Shown one piece after another: positions 8,484 to 38,616 of a stretch of 64,000 nt of DNA. The translations under genes were made by a program, and so were the position numbers. Each line of letters opens with the position of its first letter. The first letter of the stretch is position 1. Under the pieces are notes generated by a model, which ran no database searches, was not told the origin of the DNA, and saw only the letters and a program-made list of their open reading frames with translations. The stretch covers positions 18,593 through 82,592 of the IMG/VR virus record IMGVR_UViG_3300031760_000029. The stretch is one strand, 5' to 3'. This DNA is from a virus (Duplodnaviria; Caudoviricetes).

Positions 8484-8531
8484 GCACTAAAATTAGTGCT
8501 TGACAAATAGATAATTGCAAACTAAAATTAA
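8484..8531 (+). promoter_or_regulatory. sigmaA promoter with two CTAAAATTA boxes
   Basis: TTGACA (8500)-17 bp-TAAAAT (8523); boxes at 8487 (inside the palindrome gcactaa-aa-ttagtgc) and 8522. Confidence 0.75.
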
Positions 8532-10855: not shown

Positions 10856-11793
10856 ATGAATACAAATAAAATTTTACTTGATAACACAAAAACGACCGAA
10901 GAAAAAGTATATCTTATAGCGAAATCCATAAAGGATTCTGGTCGATCAATAGATAATGATTTATGGTACGCAATACTTGACCTCAAAGATAAAAATTTTC
11001 CGACAATGGGAAATGATATTGATTATTTTGCAAAGGCAGAAAGCGAGGTTAAGAAATGAAATGTCCGTATCAGACTAAAGTAATTCACAAACCCGAATAC
11101 ACAGATGAATATGTAAAAAGGTTTGCCGAAGATGTAACAGAATTTTGTGAATGTGTAAAAAGCGAATGTCCATTTTATTACACATCATTAGCACGTGAAC
11201 ATTGTCGTAAGGCAGAAAGTGAGGGGTGAGCGAAATGAATATCTATCAGGTGTTTCACAAGTACGATGTTGATGGCGGCTTTGGTGATGCGGTCAAAACG
11301 GAATCGTTAGAGGCAACGTTCTCGACAAAGGAAATGGCAGAGAAATTCAAGGCAGAGTATGAAAATCCTCACGTTTATGATCGACCGTATCAGCCACTAT
11401 TTTGTGGCACTCTTGAGATTCGTCAGATCGAACTGGACGATGAAGAAGAATTCAATAAAGAGGACATGTGGTGGTGGGATGATGAGGAGGGCGAGCAAAA
11501 TGAGTAAGGCATATCTGCTTATGAGTGATATCGATAATGGTGCCAGTGGTTATGAAAAAATTTGTGGTTTGTACACCACAAAAGAAAAGGCAGAAGAGGC
11601 GGCTAAAACATGGATTCCTGAACGTAAAGGAAAGCAAGTAGTAATAACAGAGATGGATGTTGATCCAGATGACGTGCCTTACCATCTGGAAGGTAAGGTG
11701 CTTCGTACATTTGAAGAGTGCATACAGTATTCGGATATGCGTCCTGATTATTTATTTCATTATCTTTACGTAAAAGAAATGGAATTACAGTAA
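10856..11793 (+). CDS. run of small hypothetical ORFs (10856-11059, 11056-11229, about 11235-11507, 11500-11793)
   Basis: Translationally coupled; two end in KAESE, which encodes the next RBS. Confidence 0.6.
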
Positions 11794-13245: not shown

Positions 13246-13353
13246 GCACTAAAATTAAAGCCCCACGCTACCACAGGTGGGGCATGAAAAAGAAAATAAT
13301 CCCACATTTTGTGGGTGTAAATAAAACAACTGTTTGATTGAAAGGAGATCCAA

Positions 13354-15426
13354 ATGAACAAAGAAGAGAAGGCGGCACTTGTTAAGAAGTATTGCAACGA
13401 GAATACTAAGCCCAAGCAAGATTTATGCCCTGAGGTAAATCAGTACATCCGCACGTCAAAGGGATACGAGATTTGGAACTCCAAAGATTTAAGCAGGGAG
13501 CCGATTAACTTTGACCCTACAAGATGGAGCGACGTAAGAGAATGCGGTCTCAACAATGTGGTTTGCGTTCGCAATGAATACGAAGGTCTTTACATCGAAT
13601 ACCACGAGGATATGGATACTCTTGAATTCGCCCACATCTTCATGGATGGCGGCAGAGGTAAGGCAGGCGAAGCGAAAGAATGGTACTACGGAAATGGCTG
13701 GAATTATTCCCGCTACTTCATCTTCCGCAATGATCCGAATGCATACAGCAATACTGGTATTCTTACTGGCAATACCCACTACTCAAAGGATTTACTGAAG
13801 GAAATGAAGACATGGTCACGTCGTAGTTTGGTAGGAGAAGAGAACTACGCAGAGTTTAAGAAGTTTGCTCCAGATTCAAGCGAACTCCGTGAGTACAATC
13901 ACTGGTACAGCACACCACTCGCTCAAATATGGCAGTATGCACGGTGGTATCAAATGGAGTTCATAAAGCGAACTTCGAGTAAGACATTTAATGATCTTTC
14001 TGCTTACGAATTAGATGATATCACGCCGCTTCCGTCGAAATCTGTGGTGGATGATAAGAAAATGATTTACTTCCAAAAACTTGACGACAAATATGCGGTT
14101 CTTCGTGTATTCAGATATGGATACAGATATGAGATTAATTCAGACAAAATAATAGAAGAAATGCGTCTGTTTGTGTCTGACAAAGGTAAACCTACCGTCA
14201 TGGTGAATGATGGATACTGGAAAATAAAGGCGAGTACACCTTGGGCGGCGCAAGGAGCAGCGGTGATTATCAATGCAAGTGATATTCAGGAATGGAAGCC
14301 ATTAAAATATATCATGCCTTGTATTGAGGATGATATAAATATTCAGAATTTTATCAATTATCTGCGGCATCCGATTGTTGAACAGTTGTCAAAGGCTGGT
14401 TATGTGAATGTTGCAAAAAAATTGATGTATTGTGATGAGATTGCGTCAAATATGAAAACCTTCTTCCTTGTCGAAAAGGAAACAAAGCAGCCGATGTTTA
14501 AGTTGCTTGGTGTTAACAAGTTCGTACTTAACGCAATGGAGTGTCATGACGGGAACCTCAAGATTGCAAGAGAGATTAAATATTTTGTGGGTGGTTTCGA
14601 TGCGACAGAATTGTCACAGGATGTTTGTGATTACATCGCGAACTATGTTGACAGTGGCAGATACGGCAGTAACAGCATTACAACCTTAGTTCCTGGACAT
14701 AGATATGAGTACTGGCGCAGAGATAGTCGGTATAGTACGCCACTTACAGATGACGAAAAGAAATGGATTCTTAAGTTGTTCAAGATGGAATCCAAACAGA
14801 CTGGTTGTATTAGTTTGTTTGATGATGTTATCTCGACATACAACAGAATCAATAACAAGCCAGACATCGATCTCTACAACGTAAAGAACTATGACGACAT
14901 AAACAGATTACATGATGCTCTTGTTGCTCTTAAGGTACAGGAAGATAGAGAACGGCAGGCATTAAGAGATGCGTCAGAAAGAGAACGGCAGGAACTGCTT
15001 AAGAAGAAGTTTGAGAAACTTCAGGACGAACGTATCAAGAAATACGAGTATGAGGACGGAGACTTCTGCATCAGAGTCCCCCACCAGTTAGATGAAATCA
15101 CAAAGGAAGGTATTGTGCTGAATCACTGTGTTGGCGGATATCTTGATAAGCACGCTCAGGGAATCACGAATATCCTTTTCCTGAGACGTAAGGCAGATGA
15201 GAATATTCCGTTCTATACCATCGAGATTTGTGATGACCATGTGATTCAGATTCACGGTAATCACAATCGTTGGCTCGGGAATAATCCTGAAGCGGTACCG
15301 TTCGTATACAAGTATCTTGAGCAGTTAGGAGTTAGGTACGATAAGAAACTTCTGCTGAACAAGGGAGCTGGCTATAGTGCGGGAGACGAGGAGTTGCCCG
15401 AGAGTTACTTACAGGAGGCTGCGTAA
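13354..15426 (+). CDS. PcfJ-like domain protein
   Basis: C-terminal EITKEGIVLNHCVGGY...ILFLRR..DENIPFYTIEI....VIQIHG is the PcfJ-like signature. Confidence 0.8.
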   Translation: MNKEEKAALVKKYCNENTKPKQDLCPEVNQYIRTSKGYEIWNSKDLSREPINFDPTRWSDVRECGLNNVVCVRNEYEGLYIEYHEDMDTLEFAHIFMDGGRGKAGEAKEWYYGNGWNYSRYFIFRNDPNAYSNTGILTGNTHYSKDLLKEMKTWSRRSLVGEENYAEFKKFAPDSSELREYNHWYSTPLAQIWQYARWYQMEFIKRTSSKTFNDLSAYELDDITPLPSKSVVDDKKMIYFQKLDDKYAVLRVFRYGYRYEINSDKIIEEMRLFVSDKGKPTVMVNDGYWKIKASTPWAAQGAAVIINASDIQEWKPLKYIMPCIEDDINIQNFINYLRHPIVEQLSKAGYVNVAKKLMYCDEIASNMKTFFLVEKETKQPMFKLLGVNKFVLNAMECHDGNLKIAREIKYFVGGFDATELSQDVCDYIANYVDSGRYGSNSITTLVPGHRYEYWRRDSRYSTPLTDDEKKWILKLFKMESKQTGCISLFDDVISTYNRINNKPDIDLYNVKNYDDINRLHDALVALKVQEDRERQALRDASERERQELLKKKFEKLQDERIKKYEYEDGDFCIRVPHQLDEITKEGIVLNHCVGGYLDKHAQGITNILFLRRKADENIPFYTIEICDDHVIQIHGNHNRWLGNNPEAVPFVYKYLEQLGVRYDKKLLLNKGAGYSAGDEELPESYLQEAA

Positions 15427-15623
15427 TGGAATTTGCATACGATGGAGTTCAGTTTCATCTGAACTCCAATCCTTGGAAAAACGAGTACGAAGGGAAGTAC
15501 GTGCTGACTTATTACAACGATGCACGAGGATGGAACATGGCACTTGCTACGGTGGATAGCAAGAAAGAAGCAATGGAAAAAGTGAAGCAAATGAAGAAAG
15601 ATCATGTTGGGCCTTGGTTATAA
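15426..15623 (+). CDS. small hypothetical protein
   Basis: Coupled to the PcfJ-like gene through TAATG. Confidence 0.6.
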   Translation: MEFAYDGVQFHLNSNPWKNEYEGKYVLTYYNDARGWNMALATVDSKKEAMEKVKQMKKDHVGPWL

Positions 15624-15818
15624 GGAGGTAAAAGATGTACGAAGCAAGCAGTGATAGCCAGGAAAACTGGAACACAATGGAAGAGATCATTCGGGATTAT
15701 GGATGGGATGGGATGGACGTCCTTAAGTACCTGACAGACTGGCACGGAATGCAGTTGCTGGATAAAGCATTCATGGAAAACTTAATTGACTGCGAACTGT
15801 GATTGAAAGGAGAGCGAA

Positions 15819-16610
15819 ATGTCTAAGAGAATGTCTATTGAGGAATACGCACGGAAGGCAGCTGAGAAACTTGGTGGTGAGTATAAAGAAGTTGAAAAGG
15901 CAAATGGAATTATCAAACACGGTATTGTACTTCCCTCTGACAGTGAAATGCATCCGACTGTTTATGTGGACGATGATTATAAGAACAGGGTACGGTATCC
16001 AAGTTTCGTTAAAAAAGTACAGGAGGGATTAAGAAACTTTGTTCCAACGAAGAATCCAATCAATGACATTGCTGATTACGATGGCTTTGTCAAGGCAAGA
16101 CTGAGGGCACGGTTATACAATTGCAAGACAAATGCTGATGTATATATCAGTGCTGCTCCATATGGATTCGATGATTTGATTATCATTCCGTATGTTCAAC
16201 TTGACGATAATGCATCAGTTAAGGTAACCAACGAACTGGTGCAGATGTGGGGCAAGGAATACGACGAGATTATTAGTACCGCATTGGAAAATTCAAAGGA
16301 TTTTGAATTAACACCTATGTATGAAGTACTTGTATCACTTGGCTTCCCGCTTCCTGAAGATGATATCCCTTTGTATGTTCTATCTAATAAAACAAGGATA
16401 TGCGGAGCAATTACCGCAGTAACACAGCGGGATATGCTGAAAGAAAGATTTGGCGAATACAAGGTAATTCCGTCCAGTATTCACGAGGTGCTTATTTTAC
16501 CTGGCGATGAAGATACAGAAATGGATGAATTAACAAGTATGATTACCCATATCAATGAGAAAGAAGTGAGTCCCGAAGAGAGACTGGGTAACCACGCATA
16601 CCAGTTTTAA
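15819..16610 (+). CDS. DUF5688-family protein
   Basis: LYVLSNK...GAITA and VIPSSIHEVLILP motifs. Confidence 0.75.
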   Translation: MSKRMSIEEYARKAAEKLGGEYKEVEKANGIIKHGIVLPSDSEMHPTVYVDDDYKNRVRYPSFVKKVQEGLRNFVPTKNPINDIADYDGFVKARLRARLYNCKTNADVYISAAPYGFDDLIIIPYVQLDDNASVKVTNELVQMWGKEYDEIISTALENSKDFELTPMYEVLVSLGFPLPEDDIPLYVLSNKTRICGAITAVTQRDMLKERFGEYKVIPSSIHEVLILPGDEDTEMDELTSMITHINEKEVSPEERLGNHAYQF

Positions 16611-16626
16611 TCGAAAGGAGAGCGAA

Positions 16627-16872
16627 ATGGCAGTATTTGATACGCTGGAGCACATGGAAACGGTCGAGAATGACGACCATTACACAATCATCGAGGAGTT
16701 TCCCGAGATTGATTACACGCTCATCTACCGCCACACATCTTTCCAGCCTTTTGTTGCGGCGTGGAGACTTAACAAAGAGAAAAGTTACTGGGCGCAAGGT
16801 CATTACTTCCAGTCTTCCATTGAAGCAATCAAATGGATATGCGGGAAGTACAGAGATGAGGGGGCGGCATGA
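16627..16872 (+). CDS. hypothetical protein
   Basis: GAAAGGAG RBS; 81 aa. Confidence 0.65.
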   Translation: MAVFDTLEHMETVENDDHYTIIEEFPEIDYTLIYRHTSFQPFVAAWRLNKEKSYWAQGHYFQSSIEAIKWICGKYRDEGAA

Positions 16873-17057
16873 CAGAGTTAGATTACTGGAGAGCAGAGCA
16901 TGACACATCAAGCTCCTATGAGGAGATTCCAATAGAAATTCCTTGCGATGTAGTGGATTTCGATGGTCAGCACCACTGTCCATTTATAGGACAGACAAAC
17001 GAAAGCGAATTATGCAGAGTGATGTGTGGTCTTGGTGTTGATGAATAGGAGGTAATT

Positions 17058-17429
17058 ATGTACAAGGAAAAACTCGAACCTCAGTATGACAGACGGAAAT
17101 CTTTTTACGGTAAGGCACACGTTATCCATTACGATGACGGCAGTATTGCACTGCAGTCTTACAGCACAATCGTTGCAGTTATTGTGAACGGAAATGTGAT
17201 CCGCACATGGGGCGGATATTCGGACACTACACAGAGACACGTAAATGACTTCTTGTATCAGAACAGACACAGAGATCTGATAGGGAAAAAGAACTGGGAG
17301 AGAATGCCCAGTTACTACGAAAAAGATTGGGATTACATGACAGACGAAGAGAGAGCAGACGCGGCGGTACAGGCAATGAACGAAGCAATGAGTAACGAAG
17401 AGATGGATTTCTGGGAGAAGGTAGCATGA
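17058..17429 (+). CDS. hypothetical protein
   Basis: GGAGG RBS; QSYSTIVA...YSDTTQRHV, a common small phage protein pattern. Confidence 0.7.
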   Translation: MYKEKLEPQYDRRKSFYGKAHVIHYDDGSIALQSYSTIVAVIVNGNVIRTWGGYSDTTQRHVNDFLYQNRHRDLIGKKNWERMPSYYEKDWDYMTDEERADAAVQAMNEAMSNEEMDFWEKVA

Positions 17430-17974
17430 AACTCGAAACCATATTAAAGCAAAATCAAGGGAGAGTCGCAAAGATAGGGGCTGGCACTTGCTTCCTGTAT
17501 TGCGACACTATCACCGAGGATACAAAGGATATTCTCAATCAGATGGCCGCAAATAGAAGGAGTATACGGTCGTCCGAACTAAATTGGAAAACGGAACGTC
17601 TGCGGAACTTTGAGAAGTGGTGGAAGAACGAGAGAGAAAGGAAGATGGATGCATTCCGCAAAGCGAAGGAACAGGATCAGGAATATGCCAAGCGGTATAA
17701 GGTAAAGCCGCAGATAACAAAGACGGTTAAGGCATACAGCAAAGAGCTGACCCAGCAGAAGTTGGCCATCAAGGAAGCACTGCAAAAATATGTTAAGTAC
17801 GAAACAAAGTACTTAGCGAACTGGACGAGATACTCGTTCAGAGAGGTAAAAGAAATCTATGAGAGCGCTGATGAGGACGCAATCATCATCATCTTCGAGG
17901 GAGATGAAACTGGGCAGTATTGGACAAGTAAAGAATATAGGAGAGCACACAAAAAGGAGGAACTTGCAGCATGA
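17426..17974 (+). CDS. hypothetical protein
   Basis: 182 aa; coupled starts and stops. Confidence 0.7.
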   Translation: MKLETILKQNQGRVAKIGAGTCFLYCDTITEDTKDILNQMAANRRSIRSSELNWKTERLRNFEKWWKNERERKMDAFRKAKEQDQEYAKRYKVKPQITKTVKAYSKELTQQKLAIKEALQKYVKYETKYLANWTRYSFREVKEIYESADEDAIIIIFEGDETGQYWTSKEYRRAHKKEELAA

Positions 17975-19011
17975 ATGAGATGACTATCAGCAACTATGGC
18001 GCACCGAGTGTCAACAGAACCTATTCCCGCAAGACGTTGTTCGAAGGGAACGGCAAGAAGTTACTGTGGGATGGACTGGGAACGGATGTTACTCAGGCAC
18101 ATAGCGCAAAAGCAGTGTGTCAGTTGGCTGGTTTGGATTACTCGGTGTATACGGAGCCGATTTACACGGCAGACGGTATGAAGATCCCTAACATGGTAGC
18201 CACTCGGCGCTATGACAGAGTTGGCGAAACGGAAGTGCCGTCAACAGTCTACGGTGCGGTGACTAACCGCTACCATCCCGTACAGAACACGGCAGGTTTT
18301 GAGTTCATTGACGCACTGTTTGGTCACAATGGATTCCAGGTCGAAACTGCTGGACAGTTTGACGACGGAAAGATTGTGTGGATTGAGGCAAAGCTGCCTC
18401 AGCGAAACATGGTTGGTGAGAAGGTTGATCCCTATCTGGTATTTACCAATCGCCACGATGGTAAAGGGAGCGTGAGAATCTTCCTCACTCCTGTTCGAGT
18501 CATCTGCAAGAATACTCTGAACTATGCAATCAAGGGAGCGCAGAACAGATCCTTCAGCGTCAAACACACCAGTTCGGCACAGGCAAGACTGGCTGCCGCA
18601 ATTGAAACCATCGAGAATTACAATCACTATCTCGGTGCAATGGAACAGACAATCGAAAAGCAGAAGAGAATTCTTCTGCAGGACAAGCACGTTGATACAT
18701 TCCTTGAGAGAATGTTCCCCGTCAATGACGAGATGTCTCCGAGGGAGTACGACAGAGTGCTGGCGAGCAGGCAGGAAGTCAGGGATATCTACAAGACAAC
18801 GGAAGATCTTGATGGATATGAGAACAGCGGATTCAAGTTTGTGAACGCAGTCTCTGACTGGGCGACACACCACACACCTTCAAGGCAGACGAGAAACTAC
18901 CGAAGCAACCTGTTCCAGAAGACACTGGCAGGCAACAATTACATTGATGTGGCATACACAATGGTTGATGAGTTCAGTGAAGCAAACAAGATGATCACCG
19001 TGGCAGCCTAA
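17971..19011 (+). CDS. DUF932-family protein
   Basis: WDGLG..V..A.S....C.LAGLDY, YHPVQN..GFEF, ETAG.FDDGK.VW, NRHDG and TPVRVICKNTL motifs. Confidence 0.85.
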   Translation: MNEMTISNYGAPSVNRTYSRKTLFEGNGKKLLWDGLGTDVTQAHSAKAVCQLAGLDYSVYTEPIYTADGMKIPNMVATRRYDRVGETEVPSTVYGAVTNRYHPVQNTAGFEFIDALFGHNGFQVETAGQFDDGKIVWIEAKLPQRNMVGEKVDPYLVFTNRHDGKGSVRIFLTPVRVICKNTLNYAIKGAQNRSFSVKHTSSAQARLAAAIETIENYNHYLGAMEQTIEKQKRILLQDKHVDTFLERMFPVNDEMSPREYDRVLASRQEVRDIYKTTEDLDGYENSGFKFVNAVSDWATHHTPSRQTRNYRSNLFQKTLAGNNYIDVAYTMVDEFSEANKMITVAA

Positions 19012-19027
19012 CACAAAGGAGGGAATC

Positions 19028-19474
19028 ATGTCATACAGTGAGCTTAAGAAGTTTTATGACAAGACGAGATTAGATTACTTCATGATGGCAATCACCCATC
19101 TGATGGATATTGGATGGAGAAACGCAAAGAAGATTACGGACGAAGAAATTGAGAAGTGTGAAGGAAACGGACTGATGACAAAGGGCTTCGTTCAGTGGGT
19201 TCAACGGACGGCAAGAGATATTACACAGATAGCAGATGGGCCAGCCGAATTGATCCAGTTCTGTGAAGCACAGGATGTGTTTGATATACAGAATTATGCT
19301 GAGACTGTCAACCGAAGTACACTGGAACAGGTGGTGCAGAACACACAGGAATATCTGTTCAATAAAGGATATAACTACGATGACATGAGATACATTTGGG
19401 ATCTTGATGATTACGAAATGGAATTGCTTGGATTTGTAAACGAGGACGATGAAGATGAACTCGAGACAAGCTAA
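19028..19474 (+). CDS. hypothetical protein
   Basis: 148 aa; RBS; acidic C-terminus. Confidence 0.7.
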   Translation: MSYSELKKFYDKTRLDYFMMAITHLMDIGWRNAKKITDEEIEKCEGNGLMTKGFVQWVQRTARDITQIADGPAELIQFCEAQDVFDIQNYAETVNRSTLEQVVQNTQEYLFNKGYNYDDMRYIWDLDDYEMELLGFVNEDDEDELETS

Positions 19475-19590
19475 GAAGAAACGAAAGAAAGATGAATGGT
19501 TCATTGTATCATTCGTAAATAATTACAATGCGTTGAGAAAGGAACGCAGATACGAACACGAATACTTCCACAAAATGAGGAGGAAAGGAA

Positions 19591-20577
19591 ATGGCGAAAC
19601 AGATTGTTGGATTTGACCGTAAGACAATTTCATGGAACTGCAATCAGATAGTGAAGATGATGGAGAATGCTTCGATTCGCTTTGATTCAGCGGTTCAGAG
19701 GACGCTGGTCTGGGATCAGTCACGGAAGTCGCTTCTAATTCATTCGCTTATCACTGGAATGCCAGTTCCTGCATTCTATGCGGTTCGTGGTGCTGACAAG
19801 GTATACGACTTCCTTGACGGAAAGCAGAGATGCAATGCAATCCGTGAGTATGTCAAGGGAATGTATTCACTAAAAGATGTACCGCCAGTTCTGTATGACG
19901 ACGGAAGCGAAGAGGATATCAACGGAATGTTCTTCAGTGGTCTGTCTGAAGAGATGCAGGACAATATCAAGTCGTATTCATTGAATATCAACTACTTCGA
20001 TGAACTCGAAGAGGAACAGCAGGAAGAGTTGTTTTACAGGATCAACAACGGGAAACCTCTTACACAGATTGAACAGTCCAGGGTTCGCTGCAATGCACTT
20101 CCGCAGATTAAGGTTCTCGGACACCATCCTGTATATGACTTCTTGACTGACAAAGCGAGAGCGAGATACACGGACGAGGATTTGGTTACGAAGTCATTTG
20201 CAATCCTCAATATGGAGACACCGTGTTTGGACACTAAGGAAATCCGTCCATTCATGGAGAAGCTGGTGATTAACAAGGCAGACCACGACAAGATGTGGAA
20301 GATTTACGACAACATTAAGAAGATGCACGACGAGATGATTGAGAACGAGGCGGGCACGCCAGCCAAGAGATTGTACGTCAAAACACATTTTCTCTCTATT
20401 ATTCCGTTTGTTGCGGAACACGGGAAGCAGACAGAATTTCTCCAGCACTTCTTCAGTGGTGAGAGGATGACGATTTCGAAGAAATACAATGATAATGCAA
20501 CTGCTGGTGTTGGCCATGTTCCAGCGGTAAAGGCAAGGCTCGATGCAATCGAGGCCGAGTGGAAGAAATTCCACTAA
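19591..20577 (+). CDS. DUF262 (ParB-like/GmrSD N-terminal) domain protein
   Basis: VQRTLVWD...SLLIHSLITGMPVPAFY and LDGKQR, plus ELFYRINNGKPL. Confidence 0.8.
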   Translation: MAKQIVGFDRKTISWNCNQIVKMMENASIRFDSAVQRTLVWDQSRKSLLIHSLITGMPVPAFYAVRGADKVYDFLDGKQRCNAIREYVKGMYSLKDVPPVLYDDGSEEDINGMFFSGLSEEMQDNIKSYSLNINYFDELEEEQQEELFYRINNGKPLTQIEQSRVRCNALPQIKVLGHHPVYDFLTDKARARYTDEDLVTKSFAILNMETPCLDTKEIRPFMEKLVINKADHDKMWKIYDNIKKMHDEMIENEAGTPAKRLYVKTHFLSIIPFVAEHGKQTEFLQHFFSGERMTISKKYNDNATAGVGHVPAVKARLDAIEAEWKKFH

Positions 20578-20623
20578 ACAAGAGAAGCGGGGCAGTCAAT
20601 CGGCTGCCCCAGGAGGGAGAGAT

Positions 20624-21023
20624 ATGGGCTTTTATTATGTTTATGCAGAAGATGATCGTTTGGTTGGAAGGTATGAAGATTTAGATGATGCAATTAAGAT
20701 TGCTGAATCTAAGCCGTATGCATGTTGGATTTGGAACAGCTACGAAGATAAAATAGTGTGGAGCAATCTGTAGGAAGGAGAGAAATATGGATACCATTAC
20801 ATTTGATGGAGTCAAGTATCCAGTACGGCTTATGGATTCCGATGAGTTTGGAATAGTGTATGTTGGTATTGAATCAATGGAGGATGCGATGCTTGATGAT
20901 GAGTGTGACTTAATAAATGAAGAGGCAGAGGCAATTGATTCGCAGATAATGTTCTATGTCCCTGATGAGATCATTGATGATGAAGGGAAGGTAATGTCGT
21001 ATCTGAATAGACACTTAGGATGA
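20624..21023 (+). CDS. two small acidic ORFs (20624-20773, 20787-21023)
   Basis: Strong RBSs; they precede the first junction site of the array. Confidence 0.65.
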
Positions 21024-21037
21024 AAGGAAAGTTTTAA

Positions 21038-21430
21038 ATGAATATGAATCTCAATATGAAATGGAATGATTATCCGTCAGCATCATTATACTTATGGAAC
21101 GGATATACAATCTTTCGGATTGCTGAGGGAACTGGAGATAATCTGACAAAAGAAGATGAAGAGGCTGGATATAAAGACTACTGGATGACCGAGTATGCCT
21201 CAGAAGGAGATTCTAACGGCGGCATGTGGCTGGAAACGGAATATATCAGCGATATTGATTACACTATTCAGGGAGTCCTCGATAGACTTATGGAATGTGA
21301 TTTATGGGAAGACAACTGGGAAATCATTGACGAAGATCTTGGCATTGATTTGATGAATGCTATGGATAAGTATTGGTTTGCAAAGGGAGAAATGAAGAGA
21401 TTGGTGGAGAAAGCAAATGGACGGGGATGA
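21038..21430 (+). CDS. small acidic hypothetical protein (cassette-like)
   Basis: 130 aa, D/E-rich; follows site 21021. Confidence 0.7.
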   Translation: MNMNLNMKWNDYPSASLYLWNGYTIFRIAEGTGDNLTKEDEEAGYKDYWMTEYASEGDSNGGMWLETEYISDIDYTIQGVLDRLMECDLWEDNWEIIDEDLGIDLMNAMDKYWFAKGEMKRLVEKANGRG

Positions 21431-22530
21431 TACATTAAAATTTCTCGAGGATTTGGAAAAGGAAACAACAAACAAGAAGCTACGGAATCTGCTGCACTGT
21501 CTTATCTCTTCCAGTCCAAGTCTCGACTTGGCATGTGGAGATTGGAACGACAGGGAGTATTTCTATGCAGAAGAATATGGTGAACTGGTTGAAGATACGG
21601 CAAGAGAACTGGAAAACATTATGGGAGTTCGAAGGAAATAAAAGAAAGGTTTTGTGAGGTAAAAATCATGAAAGAATATAGATTTCGTGTTGATTTGTGT
21701 GGCGGTTATACTGATGGTTTTATTACGGTAAAGGCAGATGATGAAGGTAATGCATACGACAAGGCAACAGAATATGTTGGCAAGAAATTATATGAAGCAT
21801 TTCCTGAATTAGACATAGAATATAACGTTGAAGTATATGAAGAGTATGATACGGAAGAAGATGAATAAAAACAACATTTCAAGGGAGGAAGCAATGCAGA
21901 GACATTTATACTTCGTTAAAATCCAGGGTCGGAAAGCAGTATACGATATCATCATAGCTGCTTTTAGTGAAGCAAATGCACGAGCAGTTGCAGAAGAATA
22001 TTTTGAAAATATAGCAATGGAAGTGAGGCCATGTACTTTAGAAGATATAGATAACGCAAAAGATAAAAGGATTATGCATATGAGTCACATAATGACTCCG
22101 TTAGATAGAGAAGTGGCTGAAAGATATGGTATTAAATAAAACCAAGATATTTCAAGAGAGGTAAATATATGGACGAGAAGTCACGGCTTTATGATGAAAT
22201 AAGCAGAGTGCTGACGAATTACGAAGAGTATGTAAATGGAACTGGAGATGACAGTGAGATCTACGAGAGAGCTGCAGATATGTATTCTGTTTTGGTGGAT
22301 ATTCAGAACCAGTGGGAGACGGTAATTACGGCACAATAAACCGAACATTTCAAGGAAGGTAAAAGAGAATGACCAAAGCAGAAATCATTAAAGAACTTCA
22401 TAGTTGTGGTGAGATGTGGGCAAATAATTCGTACTCAAAAGAATATCTGGAAAAGTATCTTGAAAAATACAAAGAAGCTACAAAAATGACGATTGAAGAA
22501 TTATATGCAGCGATTAAGGCAAAGAAATAA
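21417..22530 (+). CDS. five small cassette-like ORFs (21417-21641, 21668-21868, 21894-22139, 22169-22339, 22369-22530)
   Basis: Each ends at a junction site; 53-81 aa; all but the first (which overlaps the previous ORF) have their own RBS. Confidence 0.65.
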
Positions 22531-22556
22531 AACCAAGATTTTATAAGGAGTGGATT

Positions 22557-24443
22557 ATGGTAGCTACAAAAACAGATGGATTACTTACATATACTGGTTT
22601 CAATCCAGTAGACAATGGAAAGATATGGATCACAGAAAAAGGGAATTATACATATGTACATAAACAAAATAATGAATGGTCTGTATCGTATGTTCCTATT
22701 GCAACGTATGATTTAGCATATTTACAAGAAGCAAAACGATGTAGATATGTAGTGCCATCATACTCAATAGAAAAACGAATTATAGATGGTGAGACAGCAT
22801 ATCATTTTTGGAAAGGAAAGGACTATTGGTTCTTTGACAAAGATGAAGCGATAAAATTTATTCTCGACAATTGGAGCGAATGAAACAAGGTTTTTAAGGG
22901 GTGCAATATGACAACAATAGAGATACTTACAGCTCTAATTAAAGAACTTGCAGCAAAGAATGGTTTCCCAGAGGATAGAATCCAAGTGTTCTGTGATGAT
23001 GATGGCAAAATAGGAATCGATATAGATAACGGAGATTGGAGTAATTGTTTATCATACGATGAAGCCGAAGATCAGATATACAACCTGTTTAAGGGAATTG
23101 AATTGTGTAGTAAATGAAATAAGATTTTGATAGGAGATATTTATGAGAATATATGATATCAAGTGGGATGTAGCAGATAGTGACCACAAGATTACTCTAC
23201 CTAAAGAAGTAATTATCTCAGATCCTGATGAGGCAAAGATAATTGAAAATATGTATGATGGCGATATGGCTTATTATCTTTTTGATGAATACGGATACGA
23301 TGTTAGATCGTTTAGAGTAGATCAGTAAAATAATGTTTTTAAGAGAGGTAAATTATGGTAGCAGTATGTAGACCGCTTGAGGGAATTACGATTAATACAG
23401 AAGTTGAATATGTATTAGATGATGATGGCGAAATTAAAGAGTTTGAAGATGTAGAAACAGCGGAGGAATGGTTAAAGGAACACGGAGTTACAGAAGAGAT
23501 CATGGAGTATCTGATGTTTGTTAACGCAGAAAACGGAGAGTTAATAAAATAACTTTTTGATAAGGAGGGACGGATATGAAGGGTAGACGAATCAGACAAA
23601 TCAATAATTTAACTATTCGCTACACTGATTTTTATCAGTATTCTGTATGGACTCCAGATGGACGATGCTGGGAAGACAGGATGACTTATAGCGAAGCTGT
23701 TGAGTTTTGTAAAAATACAAAGGATTTTGTAAATGAAAGCTGAATTTAAAGGAAGCTGACTATGGCATATATCTTAAAAGAATCGTGTGGAACGTGCAGA
23801 CAAGATCCTATGGAACTAAAAGAGAGACAGGATTGTTTGGTGTATGACGAAATGGAATGTGAAGCAAAGGATTGTAATGAATGTTTCATGGTTGAAGAGG
23901 AAGACAAAAATGCATACATTGATCAAAGAATTGTGTGAGGAAAATGGGGTTGAATATAGCGAAAAGCTGTTTCGGGAAATACATTTTAGATGCTCTGATC
24001 TTGAAAAGGATGATGTAACCGAAAATATCCTGGCCTGCCTTGATTACATTAAAGACAACGGATTGGACGCGCTGATAAACGAGATGGATGACTGTAATAT
24101 CTGGTCATACATTTGTTGATAAAACGGTTATTCCAAAGGGAGGGCGAAAGCAATGAAACATGAAGTAACTCTGTCGATTGAAAGTGTGCGGGCTGTTGCA
24201 AATGGAGAAGAATATGACAGTTGGGGAGAGGTCCAGGTATGGAATGGAAAGATAGGTGCCGAGTATAATCTGTGTTTTAATGGGGAAAATTGCAGCGCAA
24301 TATATTTAATGGGAGAAGATGATGATGGTTATTGGGACACTGATACTAGTACATTTGAACACTATGAGATAGATCCTGACGATCCTAAATGGAAAGAGAA
24401 TTTAATCGAAGCGATGGAAAAATTTGTAAAAAATAATAGCTGA
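22557..24443 (+). CDS. small cassette-like ORFs (22557-22883, 22908-23117, 23143-23328, 23355-23552, 23576-23743, about 23762-23935, about 23910-24119, 24153-24443)
   Basis: Mostly single ORFs between consecutive junction sites; mostly acidic. Confidence 0.65.
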
Positions 24444-24535
24444 ATACATACAATATATTGCACAAAGACAAATCATAGAATCAATATACTGTATACAAAA
24501 TGCCAATAAAAGTAACGTTTAATTGGAGATGAAAC

Positions 24536-26225
24536 ATGTTGAAGAAGAAGACGGATAATGGCACGATCTCGGCAACGTCATTTGAAACAATGAATGAGAA
24601 GGGAATTGCAGTTGGTTTGTATGGAGAGATGAGTGTAGTGAGCTTTGAGAGCAATGGAAAAGGATTGATTCTTCTGATTAACGACGACATGATCGAGCAG
24701 TTTAGAGTGAATGTGTTACATACAGATGCAAATTGGAACGCGAAGTAAGGGAGGAGAATAAAATAGCATGGATAATGCAATTGTAAAGGAAACACGAGAT
24801 ATATGGTGGAATGAAATTACAAACATCATTTATTGCTCCGAATCGTGTGAAAATGCAGCAGAAGAAATCCTTGAATATCTGGAGGAAGAGGGAGCATTTA
24901 CGGTAGTGGATGATTAAGGGAGGACAAATTATGAGTAAGAGATATAAGGTGCGAATCGTTAGCAAGCGTAGCTCTATTGACCATGACTACTACACTGGAA
25001 ACAAGGAGGTACGGTCTTACGTCTGGGACGAACCAGACAAAAAAGAGGAGCTGTTTCTATAGAAACCCAACACTTTTTTGAGATACGTAAGGTAATAATA
25101 GATATGATACAAAGTGATTCATAGGAGGGAAATATGACAGAAATGATTGGGGTAAATACAAGTGCTGGTGTGCTAAGAGCTTATAAGAGTGCAGATCCTG
25201 GTCAACCAGGTATTTGTGTAGTATTACAACCCAAAGGATATGATTGTGAAATAGATATGTCTTATGTATCTGTATATGAAGATCCAGAATATAAGACATA
25301 TATGAATGAAGAACCTGAGGATGTATCGATTATGACATATGGAAATCCGTATAATGAAGACTACACAGATAAGGTAATGATTAGAAGAAATGATGTTGTG
25401 AATGCGTTAAATTATGAGGGAGAATAAGATGAAGGATGATATTTACAAGGGATGTATGTTGATCGGACACAGATTCAATCAAAAATATAGTACAGAAGAA
25501 ACAGATGATTGGAGTGGATCGGAAGAGTGTTCTACCGTAGCGAGATTAACATATACCCTGATGGATACATTGAACGTCAGCATGGAGAAAGCACTAGATA
25601 TTGTAATGGAAATCGCTATGAATCAAGGCTTCCGAAAGGTTGAAGAACATATGTGGGATGACTACTGCAGAGGTTTTCTTGCTGGTCAGATCATCGGAAT
25701 GCCAACCAAAGAGAATCTAAAGAAGGTAAATGAGGCAGAAGAACTTTGGTTGGATGATAGATATGGAAAATATGGATACTATCAGGAGGTCTTAGAAGAA
25801 GTTAGTAATAAAATGTGATTTTGATGGAGGATAAAAATGGATAACTTAAAGGAAACATTCTTACGGCGTTATATAGATACGATTGATGCATATTTGAATT
25901 ATAAGGGAAGCGGCGAAGGTCACAGAGCCATCATGTATGTAATGGAAGAATATAAAAAGATAATGGTTGAAACGTTCGGAATGGAAGAAGATGCGGTAGA
26001 AAATATATATATGGATAAATATAAGGAGAAATACAGATGAATGAGGAAAAAATAATAGCTAAACATTATGGTTTAAGACTTTATGATCTCAGCGAAGATC
26101 ATGGACGCACATGGATGGATAGATGGTTATATGATTATGAGGCAAATCAGTATGCTGCCGAATGTTTTGTAGTACGGGATCACGAAAGAATGTACATCAT
26201 TGGTTCTAATATGTATGGAGGCTAA
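24536..26225 (+). CDS. small ORFs at the distal end of the array (including 24536-24748, 25134-25427, about 25429-25818, 25837-26040, 26037-26225)
   Basis: RBS-supported, co-directional. Confidence 0.6.
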
Positions 26226-26339
26226 ATATGAATAACAAGGGAATGGGAGTGTTAGAGATTTTGGTGGCTATAGCAATAACAATTGCACTTGCAGCATTTG
26301 TAGTATACGTATTGTAATAAATCGAGCGTTTGGACGAAA

Positions 26340-26369
26340 GAGAGTCGAGCGTTCGGCTCTCTTTTTTTT
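26340..26369 (+). terminator. intrinsic terminator closing the small-ORF array
   Basis: gagagtcga-gcgt-tcggctctc followed by T8. Confidence 0.8.
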
Positions 26370-26392
26370 GTACTCAAAAATAAGGAGGCCAT

Positions 26393-26869
26393 ATGAAAAC
26401 ATACAAACTGTTCAGAGTTCGCAATGGAAAGCTGTTCCCGCTTTATGTTGAAGCAAACAGGGAGATGGAAGTTGGTAAGTGGTTACGGTCTGGATGTGGG
26501 GCGAAGGTAGATGACACACATGTAAAGGCAAGTGGATGTGGAGGGAAGTTAAGTCTTAGGAGTGGTTTTCATAGCACGAAGATCCCGTTCACAGATTGGA
26601 TTGGCAAGAAGTCGGAAGATGGAACGCTGCTGCAGAGGGAAGATACAGTTTGGTGTGAGTGTGAAGTAAAAGGGAATGAGGTTGAAAGCCCTGGGAGATA
26701 TGGATATAGAGAGATTCCTAAGAATAAGTGGTATTACTTTCGCACAAACTCAAAGCAAAAGGATCCTTGGATTATTAGCGACTGGCTGAAAATTAATCGG
26801 ATTTTAAATCACGATGAAGTGAAGAATATTTGTGCTGCAAATGGAATTGTTGCTCAGGCAATGGCTTAA
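26393..26869 (+). CDS. conserved phage hypothetical protein
   Basis: 158 aa; YKLFRV..GKLFPLYV...RSGFH...WCECEV pattern. Confidence 0.75.
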   Translation: MKTYKLFRVRNGKLFPLYVEANREMEVGKWLRSGCGAKVDDTHVKASGCGGKLSLRSGFHSTKIPFTDWIGKKSEDGTLLQREDTVWCECEVKGNEVESPGRYGYREIPKNKWYYFRTNSKQKDPWIISDWLKINRILNHDEVKNICAANGIVAQAMA

Positions 26870-26881
26870 GGAGGAAAAGAG

Positions 26882-27580
26882 ATGGCAAAGGAACTTAGTT
26901 TGGCGGCAGAGCAGAACAGAGTTAAGAAGCTTTTGGATGCAAGAAATGCTAATTTGGCATGGGTGGAAGAGTTGCATGTTAAGCTGCAGCGTGGAAATAA
27001 GAAGACTGGAACGAATTGTTGGACGGTATCTCTTATGCCAGTGATTGATTGCGGAAACTGTAGTCAGTGCTCGCATGGTTGCTATGATCTTCGAAATGAT
27101 ATGATTTATCCTGCAGTGATCGAGGATCGAGCAAGGAATTCTGCGATCCATAAGGTAAATCCTGAGAGATATTGGAGAGAGATTGATCAGCAGATTAAGT
27201 TGAACTATGTACAGGAACTAAGATTAAATGTAGGAGGTGACTTGACGGACGATGATTTCTATTATGTGAAAGCTCTTGGTGAAGCGAACCCGAAGACACA
27301 GATCCTGTTCTTTACGAAGAACTACAAGGGAATCAACAAGTTTCTGTATGATAATAAGTTTCCTGAGAATGTACATGCAATCATGAGCGCTTGGCAGAAC
27401 ATGGAAATGGAAAATCCGCATAATCTCCCCTGCAGCCACGTGCTGTATGAAGACGGCAGAACGACTGCTCCTGAGTATGGTGCTTACTATTGCAGCGGGA
27501 ATTGCAGTGAATGTGCATTCGAAGGTAAAGGATGTTGGACGTTGAAGAATGGAGAGCATGTAATTTTCAGAGTACACTAA
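26882..27580 (+). CDS. Gp88-like Cys-rich protein
   Basis: GNKKTG, CGNCSQCSHGCY, RLNVGGD, LFFTK and CSGNCSEC motifs. Confidence 0.7.
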   Translation: MAKELSLAAEQNRVKKLLDARNANLAWVEELHVKLQRGNKKTGTNCWTVSLMPVIDCGNCSQCSHGCYDLRNDMIYPAVIEDRARNSAIHKVNPERYWREIDQQIKLNYVQELRLNVGGDLTDDDFYYVKALGEANPKTQILFFTKNYKGINKFLYDNKFPENVHAIMSAWQNMEMENPHNLPCSHVLYEDGRTTAPEYGAYYCSGNCSECAFEGKGCWTLKNGEHVIFRVH

Positions 27581-29184: not shown

Positions 29185-30126
29185 ATGAGTGGGCGAGCTG
29201 AAATGGATAAGAAAAATGATAAATGGATAAATGAGAGAAAAGGTAAATGCTCTCAATTCGTCTCCGATTATATTGATAGTATCGATGGTGTAAAAACATC
29301 TGCCACCAGAAAGCAATATTTGTATTATCTGATGGATTTTGAGAAATATATTAAGAAATTAAATGTTGATATATGTAAAGTAAAACCATTTCATGTTGAA
29401 AAGTATCGAAATTGTCTAACTAAAAATGGAAATAAGGCAAGTATCGTTAATGGAAAACTGTCTGCGATTATTTCTTTTTACAATTTTCTAATCAAAAATG
29501 GATTTGTAGACAAGAATCCATGTGATAATGACATGAAATTAAAAATTGCAGAAAAAGAATCTGTTGTATATATGACAGATGAAGAGATTCATAAGTTAAA
29601 GGAAAATATCGTTTCATGTAAAAATAGGCATAGTGATAGATTTGTATTAAGAGATTTATGTATAGTTCAACTTGGATGTGCTACTGGTTTGCGTGTTTCT
29701 GCTATTGTTAATATAGATATTGATGATATTGATTTTGAGCAAATGACAATTAAAGTTGTTGAAAAGGGAAATAAAGTAAGGACGATATATATTGGCGAAA
29801 ACACAGTGAATAGTATTAAGAACTGGCTAAAAGAAAGAGTTATAACCGTTCGAAACAAGGAAGAGAGAGCTTTATTCATTGGTAATCATGGTGGTCGTAT
29901 GTCTGCTTCAGCTGTACGAAATCTATTGAAACATGATGCGGGCGAGTTTGGTAAGCATATCACTCCTCATAAAATGCGTTCAACATGTGCCATGAAACTA
30001 TACGATAAGACTGGAGATATTTATTTAACAGCACAGCAGCTCGGGCATGCTAATGTGAAAAACACCATGATATACGCAAAAGCAACAGAAGAGAAACGAC
30101 GTATGGCCGCAGATTTGTTAGATTGA
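29185..30126 (+). CDS. tyrosine recombinase (XerC/D-like) with intact catalytic residues
   Basis: TGLRVS (R), EKGNK (K), PHKMR (HxxR), LGH (H), TMIY (Y); N-terminal SAM-like domain. Confidence 0.92.
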   Translation: MSGRAEMDKKNDKWINERKGKCSQFVSDYIDSIDGVKTSATRKQYLYYLMDFEKYIKKLNVDICKVKPFHVEKYRNCLTKNGNKASIVNGKLSAIISFYNFLIKNGFVDKNPCDNDMKLKIAEKESVVYMTDEEIHKLKENIVSCKNRHSDRFVLRDLCIVQLGCATGLRVSAIVNIDIDDIDFEQMTIKVVEKGNKVRTIYIGENTVNSIKNWLKERVITVRNKEERALFIGNHGGRMSASAVRNLLKHDAGEFGKHITPHKMRSTCAMKLYDKTGDIYLTAQQLGHANVKNTMIYAKATEEKRRMAADLLD

Positions 30127-30310: not shown

Positions 30311-30397
30311 TGTATTACAATTATCATGCCAATTATAATTTAATATGTAGCGATGTTAAAAGAAGGTTTTTATTGACAAAGGCAAAGACTGGCGTAA

Positions 30398-30445
30398 CAA
30401 AATTAACGTCAAAGCATTGACAAACGATTTGAAATATCGTAAATT
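30398..30445 (+). promoter_or_regulatory. sigmaA promoter with upstream CAAAATTAACG box
   Basis: TTGACA (30417)-17 bp-TAAATT (30440); a second TTGACA lies at 30373. Confidence 0.6.
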
Positions 30446-30466: not shown

Positions 30467-31657
30467 ATGACTAACAGAGACGAGTTATGCGCAGATCTTC
30501 AGAAGATTCTTGAACGAAATAGCAGTAATGATACAAAAGTAAAAGAGTATATTAAAACGATCGGAGATAATCATGCACTTCCAGTATCTAAGATCTTTGA
30601 CTATGTAACGGTAAGGGAAGTCATTTCTGTCCTCGATGACACGATGTTGTTTTGTATATGTGAGGCGGTCGCCAATGATAAACTTCCTCAGTTTTTTAAT
30701 AAGGAAGAGATTGCTTCGTATTCGAAATGGAAATATGTAGATACAGATAAATTTACTATTCCACATACATTTCAGAATGTGCTTGCGGTTGGAGACGATC
30801 AGTGGATTACTATAACGAGTGCAAAGGAATTGATTCGTATGGGCAATTCCCAAGTGCTTCGCTATAACGCAACCACCCAGCGCCCGCTGCAGATCGTTCG
30901 TCACGGAACAATCGAAACGTATATCCCTTACTATAATAAAAGTGCTGGCGACGCCATAAGGGAGTCGTATACCTCTGGTAAGTACATTCCTAACTTCATT
31001 ACAATCAATGTCCCAGATACACATATATGCGAATACAATGCAGAGGAAATGAGTCTGCGTGTTGATGCACCATATTTTGATCTGATTGATGGATATCATA
31101 GATATCGTTCTCTACTTTCAATATGTAGTAGTGACAAAACATTTGATTATCCTATGGGCCTGCAAATCATGAATTTTTCTGAGGGTAAGGCAAAATATTT
31201 CATCTATCAAGAAGATCAAAAGACAAAGATGGCGAGGTCATCTTCAAAAGCAATGGACGTATATGCAACGCAAAATAGGATTGTATCCAGGTTGAATGCA
31301 GATCCTTCGTTTATTCTTTGTGATAACATTAATCAGAACACAGGAGTTGTAAATTCTGCTGATCTTGGAGTTGCGATTGCTAGATTGTATGCAAATGGAG
31401 ATATTATAGAGATCACAAATGAGATCAAGGCTGGTATAGAAACGTTAGTCCAAAAGAAACCAGGACTGCTCGATAAGAAATGGGATAAGAAATATACATA
31501 TACCATAGTATTTATGATCAAGTACCACATCCCTATGACCAAAGTAGATGGTGTCTATAAGAAAGTTCTGTCTAACAATATGTTTAACGGTGATACAATT
31601 ACCAGGGCAGATACAAGAAAAATGAATGACATCTTAGGTAAGAAAGGGGGTGTATGA
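30467..31657 (+). CDS. DGQHR/DndB-like (ParB/Srx-fold) protein, SPbeta YopQ-like
   Basis: YIPNFITIN, FDLIDGYHRYRSL and AKYFIYQEDQKTKM motifs. Confidence 0.7.
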   Translation: MTNRDELCADLQKILERNSSNDTKVKEYIKTIGDNHALPVSKIFDYVTVREVISVLDDTMLFCICEAVANDKLPQFFNKEEIASYSKWKYVDTDKFTIPHTFQNVLAVGDDQWITITSAKELIRMGNSQVLRYNATTQRPLQIVRHGTIETYIPYYNKSAGDAIRESYTSGKYIPNFITINVPDTHICEYNAEEMSLRVDAPYFDLIDGYHRYRSLLSICSSDKTFDYPMGLQIMNFSEGKAKYFIYQEDQKTKMARSSSKAMDVYATQNRIVSRLNADPSFILCDNINQNTGVVNSADLGVAIARLYANGDIIEITNEIKAGIETLVQKKPGLLDKKWDKKYTYTIVFMIKYHIPMTKVDGVYKKVLSNNMFNGDTITRADTRKMNDILGKKGGV

Positions 31658-32576
31658 TATGTTTAACACAGAGAGAAAAGAAAAATTTATAGCAGAGAAT
31701 AATAATTTTGCAGAAAAGGAACTATACGAAAAGAGAATTCGTTTTCTTTTTTCTCAAACTGCTGGGCTAGAAGAAGAATATGGAAAAGATCTGTGTGATT
31801 TCTCGTACAATGAAATTATCGACTATTACAAGGCGTTGACTACTGCATCATTGGATCGACTAATTGTTACAAATAATATATTTACTACATACGGAGCTTG
31901 GTGTCTAAAGAATGGTTATGTTCAAGATGGACTTAATCACTATGCAGAAATTACATCGGATGTGTTGAATACATGTATAAATCTTGGGCATCAAAGAGAT
32001 TTATTCATACCTAGATCGGAGTTACTTAACGCGATCAGGGGATTTGGCAACAAATATGAAGAGGTAATTGTTCTTGGATTGTATGAAGGATTAGATTTAA
32101 TTGATTTGCAGAATCTGACTATTAATGATATCAATAGTCATAAATATGAAGTAAGATTACAAAAAGAAAGAACGTTGACTGTATCAAAAGAACTTATCTC
32201 TACTATGATTGAATCTGCAGATACGTATGAAGTTGTACAAATGGATGATAGAAAGAGAAAATTGTATGATGATTACAAAAAGGATTCTCCGTTAATAATC
32301 AAATTGTTTAAAGAAAGATCTATGGATGATCGTACATCACAATTATTTAATATTATGAAGAGAATCAAGGCAAATTACGGATACTCCTGGTTGAGTGCGG
32401 CAAACCTTCCAATGATTGGTTCAGCCAATATGTTATTGGAGCTTTTGCAAAAAGAAAAGGGAAAGACAGCTGAGGAGGTGGCAAACGAACACATTGCTGA
32501 ATTTAAGTTGAGATATGGACCATATTGGAGATACGGAAAGAGGATGAAATTGAAGTTTGGATATCTTTATGAGTAG
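31650..32576 (+). CDS. MrpR/YopR-like repressor with a degenerate integrase fold
   Basis: MFNTERKEKFI, LEEEYGKDLCDFSYNEIIDYY and YGAWC....NHYAEI. The catalytic Arg position reads LYEGL, consistent with an inactive recombinase fold. Follows the YopQ-like gene as in SPbeta. Confidence 0.65.
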   Translation: MYDMFNTERKEKFIAENNNFAEKELYEKRIRFLFSQTAGLEEEYGKDLCDFSYNEIIDYYKALTTASLDRLIVTNNIFTTYGAWCLKNGYVQDGLNHYAEITSDVLNTCINLGHQRDLFIPRSELLNAIRGFGNKYEEVIVLGLYEGLDLIDLQNLTINDINSHKYEVRLQKERTLTVSKELISTMIESADTYEVVQMDDRKRKLYDDYKKDSPLIIKLFKERSMDDRTSQLFNIMKRIKANYGYSWLSAANLPMIGSANMLLELLQKEKGKTAEEVANEHIAEFKLRYGPYWRYGKRMKLKFGYLYE

Positions 32577-38435: not shown

Positions 38436-38616
38436 GCATTGGTAAATGCAGATATGATCTGTCGGAAGATTGTCACAATAGAGATTGCCTTGATTGTGTG
38501 CTTGGAAAGATACGGGCGGAGATAAATACACCAAACAGAGGGACTTGTGATTATTTTATCGTGGATAAAATCGAAGAAATCGTTCACAAGTACAAGGAAG
38601 AAAGTGGGGAACACTA

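Follow-up and report, generated by a model that had tools for sequence, protein, structure and literature searches.

Introduction

The accessory regions of phages turn over rapidly, and an account of how single genes are cleanly exchanged in them exists mainly for PeSL (promoter-early stem-loop) cassettes of T4-type phages. In the parts of the published accounts that treat these elements (Arbiol et al. 2010, PMC2839356; PMC4122927), PeSL are motifs that are repeated between small ORFans of hypervariable early regions and span the upstream stop codon to the downstream Shine-Dalgarno (SD) sequence and start codon. Indels and replacements between relatives map to the motifs, and are explained there by homologous recombination between them. 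Here we describe a shorter repeated element, J, with the core AAT[AG]AAA-N6-TTTNA, which lies between tiny genes of a Caudoviricetes virus (IMG/VR record IMGVR_UViG_3300031760_000029). The analysed stretch of 64,000 nt (the window) comprises bases 18593-82592 of one 82.6-kb contig without terminal repeat; coordinates refer to the window unless another contig is named. In comparison with related phages, J arrays look like sets of fixed slots with swapped cargo, and the swapping is most likely due to short-homology recombination and not to an integron-type enzyme.

PeSL is the closest described system. As in those accounts of PeSL, J is repeated between small ORFans of a hypervariable early region, reaches from the stop codon of one gene to the SD sequence and start codon of the next, and has the end points of indels and replacements at the motif. 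PeSL is composed of a sigma-70 promoter and a terminator stem-loop, whereas J has neither promoter nor stable stem, and its core measures only ~16-20 nt. Ordered, position-specific types with unrelated cargo are a feature of J that is not mentioned for PeSL in the part of the report describing that motif (PMC2839356). The phage lineage differs as well, the window belonging to a temperate phage of the ruminant gut with an MrpR-like gene. The linkers of the modular theory of Susskind and Botstein, and the boundary sequences of lambdoid phages, are short conserved crossover points between exchangeable modules. Compared with these, the modules delimited by J are single tiny genes, and about 12 ordered types recur across phages with flanking proteins of 28-66% identity. 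An ordered set of ~12 linkers of 16-20 nt offers a concrete and testable example, at the resolution of single genes, of the linker idea in modular phage evolution.

Results

J Elements Are Concentrated at the Junctions of One Gene Array

About 158 genes were predicted by our own gene calls. A minus-strand block covers the first 22.7 kb of the contig and is followed by a long plus-strand block of more than 120 mostly small genes. The initial annotation of this DNA had reported an array of 14 palindromic sites between tiny open reading frames (ORFs) and had read them as recombination sites of a possible integron-like cassette system. The motif T[AG]AAA-N6-TTTNA was found 27 times on both strands of the window, versus 4.65 ± 2.69 expected from shuffled sequences (shuffle maximum 13). 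Eleven plus-strand copies fall within 21021-25809, every one at a gene junction. Of the 22 junctions between 20.6 and 26.3 kb, 10 carried the motif; elsewhere on the plus strand it was present at 1 of 106 junctions (Fisher p = 3e-8), and it was at none of the 28 junctions of minus-strand late genes. Shuffles and junction controls thus bear out that the motif is real and array-specific. In place of 14 sites, 11 strict matches were found, to which three close variants add, at 21639 (right arm TTTTGT), 22137 (8-nt spacer), and 22337 (left arm TAAAC). The initial annotation had not seen the motif at junctions of the 35-40 kb and 57-59 kb regions; its absence outside the array is not complete, as junction or leader copies occur at 13322 and 57950.

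The strict match at 21021 is probably a chance hit, since its "spacer" is the SD sequence itself. The coherent core consists of ten successive junctions (21641-23762) with uniform gaps of 18-29 nt and a common layout: stop codon, AAT[AG]AAA, 6 nt, TTTNA, SD sequence ((A)GGAGG), 5-9 nt, and ATG. The remaining junctions of this phage are ATGA overlaps, or have the stop codon directly followed by GAAAGGAG. Two motif matches outside the array (30357-30400 and 62681-62725) fall in A/T tracts immediately 5′ of TTGACA (GTTTTTATTGACA) and belong to promoter upstream regions, not to junctions.

The cargo of the core is a series of ten tiny plus-strand ORFs of 53-108 aa (21668-23938), mostly acidic and mutually unrelated. 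An origin of the array by tandem duplication of one gene is ruled out, as the ORFs are not paralogous. None of the ten matched Pfam, and a scan of the same ten against PHROG gave one weak match to a family without assigned function. Two of the ORFs served for comparison with other contigs, F0 (108 aa, 22557-22883) and F1 (81 aa, 21894-22139).

The architecture of J was derived from an alignment of 54 motif copies from the window phage and its relatives. The two bases preceding the left arm are A in 42 and 51 of the 54 copies, although they lie outside the search pattern, which extends the arm to AAT[AG]AAA. The right arm is followed by T or A and then by the SD sequence. Because the unsearched flanking AA is conserved and the right side leads into the SD sequence, the element is real, oriented, and asymmetric. 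Symmetry is confined to AAA/TTT plus a partial A/T preference at the next position, and position 2 of the left arm (A/G) shows no covariation with position 4 of the right arm. From the palindrome of the initial annotation the inverted AAA/TTT remains, but it is weak, with only 3-6 A/T bases and variable positions that do not covary.

The claim that conservation of the left arm does not depend on the stop codon was confirmed. The arm is coding at 23545, at 23734, and in an outlying J-like junction at 25809-25824 (plus strand). It also lies in long gaps, once in a plus-strand J-like leader at 24507-24522 (a 92-nt gap, no adjoining stop codon), and once at 13322-13337, in the plus-strand leader of the PcfJ-like gene, which is the first gene after a promoter region. 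In the relatives, the arm is often found 3′ of the true stop codon, e.g., TAA-TAAAAG, TAA-TGAAAA, or TGA-TAAAAT. A function of J as a three-frame stop linker was ruled out (12 observed versus 13.7 expected), and so was a promoter function, as no promoter-like site coincides with J. Promoter-like sites were fewer than in shuffled sequences (26 versus 44), and none was found where the array begins. Among plus-strand terminator hairpins, only the intrinsic terminator at 26336-26365 lies between genes near the array, and it closes the array's operon.

Ordered J Types Are Shared by Distant Phages while the Cargo Differs

Relatives were metagenomic contigs (L followed by a number) reached through homologues of F0 and F1, and further ones were reached through a 19-mer from one junction. 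This 19-mer had 83 matches in metagenome contigs, most of them in unrelated AT-rich sequence, and arrays were present only in L042, L045, L070, and L075. The exact 20-mer of J9 (junctions J1 to J10 are given below) had no match in IMG/VR, searches of IMG/VR and of species genomes with single proteins and with the F1 alignment returned no relatives, and no close DNA relative was found among GenBank phages. The full stretch is present in only one sequencing run, a bovine gut metagenome from which this DNA may stem; partial matches come from other ruminant gut samples, and no RNA data set was among the matching runs listed. Two loci reached through a GP88-like gene (L007, L008) were too distant, with one motif match each. 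Several contigs have an array of the same kind, among them L013 (12 junctions with the motif within 3.1 kb), L042 (13 within 5 kb, on a contig of 142 kb), and L045 (12 within 3.2 kb). Proteins flanking the arrays are only 28-66% identical between the window and these relatives, and F1 is 89-93% identical. Judged by these identities, the relatives sharing J are phages distant from that of the window.

About 12 junction types were distinguished by their centres: a (GAAAGG), b (GTAAGA/TAAGAT), c (ACAACA), d (CGAATA), e (CCAAGA), f (CAAGGT), g (TAATGT), h (TAACTT), i (GCAGAG), j (GTTGAG), k (GCTGAA), and m (GAATAC). Paired junctions of the window and L013 share exact runs of 12-20 nt, versus a maximum of 10 in shuffled sequences. 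Among about ten ORFs compared between these two arrays, only F1 is homologous (z = 86; all other pairs z ≤ 3.5). Of ten independent metagenomic arrays, that of L013 was used to set the reference order; in the other nine, 174 of 181 type pairs agreed with this order, and L042 alone contributed 76 concordant and no discordant pairs. ORFs occupying the same slot were non-homologous in 40 of 42 pairs (Smith-Waterman z from −1.3 to 3.7), one of the two homologous pairs being that of L013 and L075 (z = 57). In the slot between types g and h, seven arrays contain seven unrelated ORFs (53-105 aa). This pattern, in which the linkers are conserved and ordered and their cargo is unrelated, shows the linkers to be the places of exchange.

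The slots are not tied to particular genes, nor the types to single copies: F0 lies between types e and f in the window and between h and j in L001 and L002, and types can be duplicated within an array, e.g., e twice in the window. In L017, F1 has no J, and its junction reads TAAATG. Type k is coding in the window, and the same 17 nt are non-coding in L042 (10087-10124); type j uses either the first or the second TGA as stop codon, depending on the locus; and type e occurs in two reading frames. J cores are conserved at the nucleotide level, coding or not.

All ten core junctions of the window are on the plus strand. J1 (21637-21654, type a) lies between ORFs of 74 and 66 aa and matches L013 at 7320 exactly over 17 nt, with unrelated flanking genes. 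J2 (21864-21881, type c) is the leader of the 81-aa gene F1, and type c precedes F1 in L013 as well. J3 (22135-22154) is a hybrid with an 8-nt spacer (CCAAGATA): its left 18 nt equal type e (L013 8727-8744), its right 20 nt equal type b (within L013 7782-7813), and two extra bases stand between. J4 (22335-22352), with the left arm TAAAC, is of type d3 (CCGAAC) and forms the left edge of a 527-nt replacement in run X4. J5 (22526-22543, type e) lies upstream of the 108-aa F0 and has a 17-nt exact match in L013 at 8730. The type of J6 (22879-22896, type f) is also found in L013, L042, L045, L075, L002, and L009. J7 (23113-23130) is of type b2 (TAAGAT), and J8 (23324-23341, type g) has a spacer present in seven arrays. 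The left arm of J9 (23543-23560, type h) lies within the last codons of a 65-aa ORF, and its 19-mer ATAAAATAACTTTTTGATA is common to the window, L002, L009, L013, L042, L045, L070, and L075. In J10 (23732-23749, type k) the element encodes the residues N-E-S before the stop codon.

These comparisons also bear on the notion that the motif has no identity of its own and arises incidentally where stop codons, AT-rich spacers, and SD sequences meet. The left arm often includes the stop codon, the right arm abuts the SD sequence, and the GC content of the array region is low (35-37%), as such a by-product would have it. The notion is already contradicted by the exact 17-20 nt junction matches between phages with unrelated flanking genes and by the conserved type order; shuffles and junction controls reject it too, and the sequence is kept in differing reading frames. 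We regard it as practically untenable, in agreement with the initial annotation, which had denied that the motif is a generic product of AT-rich DNA.

Two observations from the contig searches concern other repeats. In L016 (1900-5120), another set of J-type elements is present, e.g., AATAAAACCTAATTTTTATT, a 7-6-7 inverted repeat that occurs twice; types are repeated within this array, and the element can lie up to ~15 nt from the SD sequence. In three unrelated contigs (L018, L051, and L058), the J9 19-mer sits inside a repeat recurring at ~342-nt intervals without SD context, which resembles a repeat family, tandem or interspersed, belonging to another element.

Single Genes Are Gained, Lost, and Replaced at the Junctions

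Gene gain and loss were read from contigs of four ruminant-gut runs (X2-X5) over the region 20500-26500, at a likeness of at least 85% and for the parts covered by contigs. A loss of 227 nt (21637-21863) removes exactly one gene with its leader and joins J1 and J2, which have unlike centres. The microhomology AATAAAA is present on both sides of this deletion, the crossing is in the left arm, and J2 forms the right end. Between J4 and J6, two genes (22351-22877, 527 nt) are replaced by 198 nt in run X4. The junction at 21020 carries an extra 236-253 nt in three runs, and 25803-26034 is replaced by 958 nt. Two clean changes do not involve J. The plus-strand gene 24768-24917 was deleted (deleted stretch 24745-24915) between two TAAGGGAGGA repeats consisting of stop codon and SD sequence, which is weak evidence, as the shorter side of the joint has only 35 nt. 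The 97-aa plus-strand gene at 25134-25427 was lost from start codon to start codon in two independent runs (X2 and X3).

The limits of homology blocks point to the same places. The F1 block extends from the left arm of J2 (21864) to 22145-22162, about the next J, and the F0 block keeps its leader, type h, in five loci. In L002 and L009, a type-f leader with a decayed start site persists where the gene was lost. Break positions vary among related contigs, most being placeable only to "within J", and no back-joining (circle-type) joint was found among the joints of assembled contigs. The cassette-like nature of the array proposed in the initial annotation is supported by these data: single genes are gained, lost, or replaced at junctions, which are conserved while the cargo differs. 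As a check, it had proposed to see whether breakpoints fall inside the 6-bp spacers; the few resolvable events go against precise exchange there, as the crossing of the 227-nt deletion is in the left arm and unites unlike centres, and J3 has two extra bases.

Proposed Short-Homology Exchange and the Tyrosine Recombinase

We favour, with about even confidence, the view that J elements are linkers acting as short-homology exchange points in the manner of PeSL. They would be short intercistronic linkers, usually abutting the SD sequence, set between the tiny accessory genes of a promoterless early operon. The ~12 types in fixed order along the arrays of many phages would define slots, the cargo of which would be gained, lost, and replaced by recombination crossing over in or beside the linkers. 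The near-identity over ~17-30 nt would be used by general host or phage recombination functions, with no need for a dedicated site-specific recombinase. On the mRNA, J would supply the end of one cistron together with the AU-rich leader of the next. This enzymology, like any translational role of J, is inferred. Short-homology recombination is favoured because those events that can be resolved either are imprecise or unite unlike centres, because single genes are cleanly changed at other repeated translation signals too, and because other accessory blocks of this phage have a second repeated junction sequence, unrelated to J. It is favoured further because the recombinase of this phage is Xer-like, far more diverged than J, and present in L017, which lacks J, and because the phage encodes an AAA_24 ATPase and a PD-(D/E)XK nuclease.

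The second junction repeat, AAGGCAGAAAG[CT]GAGG ... ATGACAAGAGAA, was found at 11033-11229, 38415-38440, and 39163-39190, and combines the end of the upstream gene and the SD sequence, followed by an ATGA overlap. In addition, five genes (starts at 37202, 37636, 38802, 38936, and 57764) begin with ATGACAAGAGA. The plus-strand AAA_24 ATPase (34253-35401, E = 6.5e-20), belonging to the family of Sak4-type phage annealing proteins, is a candidate for the phage recombination functions. The plus-strand PD-(D/E)XK nuclease (46540-47655) is a possible exonuclease partner.

Several points weigh against short-homology exchange. The exact cores of J (~17-20 nt) do not exceed the minimum length at which homologous recombination is usually efficient. 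Passive homology alone does not explain identical cores in widely diverged genomes; such cores need either very frequent exchange within a shared gene pool or an added function, as RNA signal or as site of a dedicated recombinase. Since all J elements resemble each other, crossovers can be placed no more finely than "within J", and the contigs with events stem from related phages and not from one strain, so that the joints are not single-strain joints. A translational role receives no support from the accessibility of SD sequence and start codon, and late genes do without J. Moreover, arms held in common around type-specific 6-nt spacers are the design expected of spacer-specific tyrosine-recombinase sites.

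J elements might accordingly be sites of a tyrosine recombinase, with common arms and type-specific 6-bp spacers, of which only like-spaced sites recombine. Co-infecting phages would then swap the cargo of a slot and leave the array in order; this would amount to natural recombinase-mediated cassette exchange, and it refines the idea of the initial annotation. In its favour, J has the geometry of inverted A/T arms around a 6-nt spacer, the ~12 types set by the spacers stay in order under changing cargo, and a recombinase gene (29185-30126) is present on the same strand 3′ of the array, starting 2.8 kb beyond its terminator with other genes intervening. Recombinases are also encoded in L001, L002, and L016. 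The best models for the window's enzyme are Xer models, although all scores are below the models' own cutoffs, and the PDB matches are XerA and XerD; the enzyme is Xer-like and most likely the phage integrase. It is not an integron integrase, reaching 64 bits versus a cutoff of 265 for TIGR02249 and 35.9 versus 435 for PRK15417. A search for attP-like inverted repeats near the gene gave nothing convincing.

Sites of the Xer/dif type and heterospecific lox/FRT sites are built of AT-rich inner arms, inverted about a centre of 6-8 bp, and differences in the centre could set partner specificity; their arms measure 11-13 bp. J shares the 6-nt centre with these sites, but has no two inverted arms of this length: only 3-6 symmetric bases are conserved, without covariation, and the right side merges with the SD sequence. 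The recombinase is not conserved together with J, as those of J-sharing phages are only 25-33% identical to the window's and L017 has one without any J junction. The 227-nt deletion joins unlike spacers, J3 is an imprecise hybrid, cargo families are found in different slots, types are duplicated within arrays, and genes are cleanly deleted without J. Considering this evidence, we hold a dedicated recombinase acting on J to be rather improbable, and the interpretation of the sites as tyrosine-recombinase core sites was not upheld. Were it true, with the 6-nt centre selecting the partner, the arrays would represent ~12 orthogonal docking sites at which cargo, probably counter-defence genes, is swapped slot by slot. 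Such an orthogonal set of recombination sites would be of biotechnological interest.

The attC sites of integrons are folded sites of 57-141 nt. Integrons, including those in phage genomes (PMC9892861), resemble the J arrays in their promoterless, mostly single-ORF units of one orientation, in a short boundary repeat, and in the presence of a tyrosine recombinase in the same genome. The J arrays differ from them in that there is no IntI-type integrase, no adjacent integrase, attI, or cassette promoter, and no folding attC-like site travelling with the cassette, while the order of J is fixed. The integron analogy of the initial annotation is thus not supported by our data, and short-homology exchange remains the explanation that we prefer. 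Pairs of J types could be used as a handle for searching metagenomes and would harvest the pool of traded tiny early genes. Many of these genes encode acidic products and may be counter-defence proteins.

J as a Possible RNA Signal or Repressor Operator

J could also be mainly a cis-acting RNA signal that coordinates expression of the accessory genes in the early operon, acting on translation as an operator or enhancer or serving as a processing site for an endonuclease; exchange would then be a by-product of its conservation. The targets of T4 RegA and RegB and the RNase III sites of T7 are examples of such signals. The orientation of J is strictly sense, and its place is always either between stop codon and SD sequence or within a 5′ leader; at 13322 and 24507 no stop codon adjoins it. 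J is absent from late genes. The folding energy of the translation-start region at J is slightly weaker (p = 0.025). However, J elements form no stable structure, SD sequence and start codon are no more accessible than at other genes, and no RNA family of Rfam matched in the array. A signal common to all cistrons would leave the ordered, type-specific spacers unexplained. The element of L016 can stand at a distance of up to ~15 nt from the SD sequence, and F1 works with the plain TAAATG junction of L017. We consider an RNA signal a minor but real possibility.

A role of J as DNA operator was considered in view of the MrpR-like protein with an N-terminal core-binding domain that is encoded on the plus strand at 31650-32576. 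In phage SPbeta, MrpR binds a repeated 15-bp element (SPBRE), and the binding peaks reported there lie in promoter regions (PMC10516654). The window shares with SPbeta the MrpR-like gene and a repeated short element, but J is located between cistrons, inside an operon without promoter-like sites. Operators also need no ordered sequence types. A better candidate for an operator or promoter is CTAAAATTAA, the most over-represented 10-mer, which occurs seven times on the plus strand of the contig; six of these copies lie in the window (8522, 13249, 33082, 43999, 50104, and 62748). The copies at 8522, 13249, 33082, and 43999 lie in long intergenic gaps of the promoter type, those at 33082 and 43999 about 17 nt after TTGACA, and CTAAAATTAA is probably the −10 region of early promoters or a repressor operator. 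Taken together, it is very improbable that J is the operator of the MrpR-like repressor.

Neighbouring Genes and Further Observations

On the 5′ side of the array, genes for PcfJ-like, DUF932, and GmrSD_N (ParB-like nuclease) proteins are located at 13354-20577. PcfJ and DUF932 are typical of the leading regions of conjugative plasmids. On the 3′ side, a gene for a 158-aa protein and a GP88-like gene follow (26393-27580). This pair adjoins an accessory array in most relatives, and the order of its genes is flipped between the window and L002 (2537-3728), with 67% identity for each. The gene order of integrase, a ~400-aa gene, and MrpR further downstream is also found in L001.

Homologues of F0 with 67% identity occur in L003-L006 (e.g., L003, 4218-7638) between a DNA methylase gene and an ArdC-like gene. 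They have a plain SD sequence, a terminator, and no J, and their context resembles a conjugative element. Directly before the operon terminator of the window, an ORF with a good SD sequence encodes a hydrophobic peptide of 29 aa (26228-26317). At the other end of the block, a GC-rich hairpin (GCGGGGCAG...CTGCCCC) without a T-run lies at 20577-20624, directly 5′ of the SD sequence of the first small gene, and may be an RNA stabiliser or a processing site.

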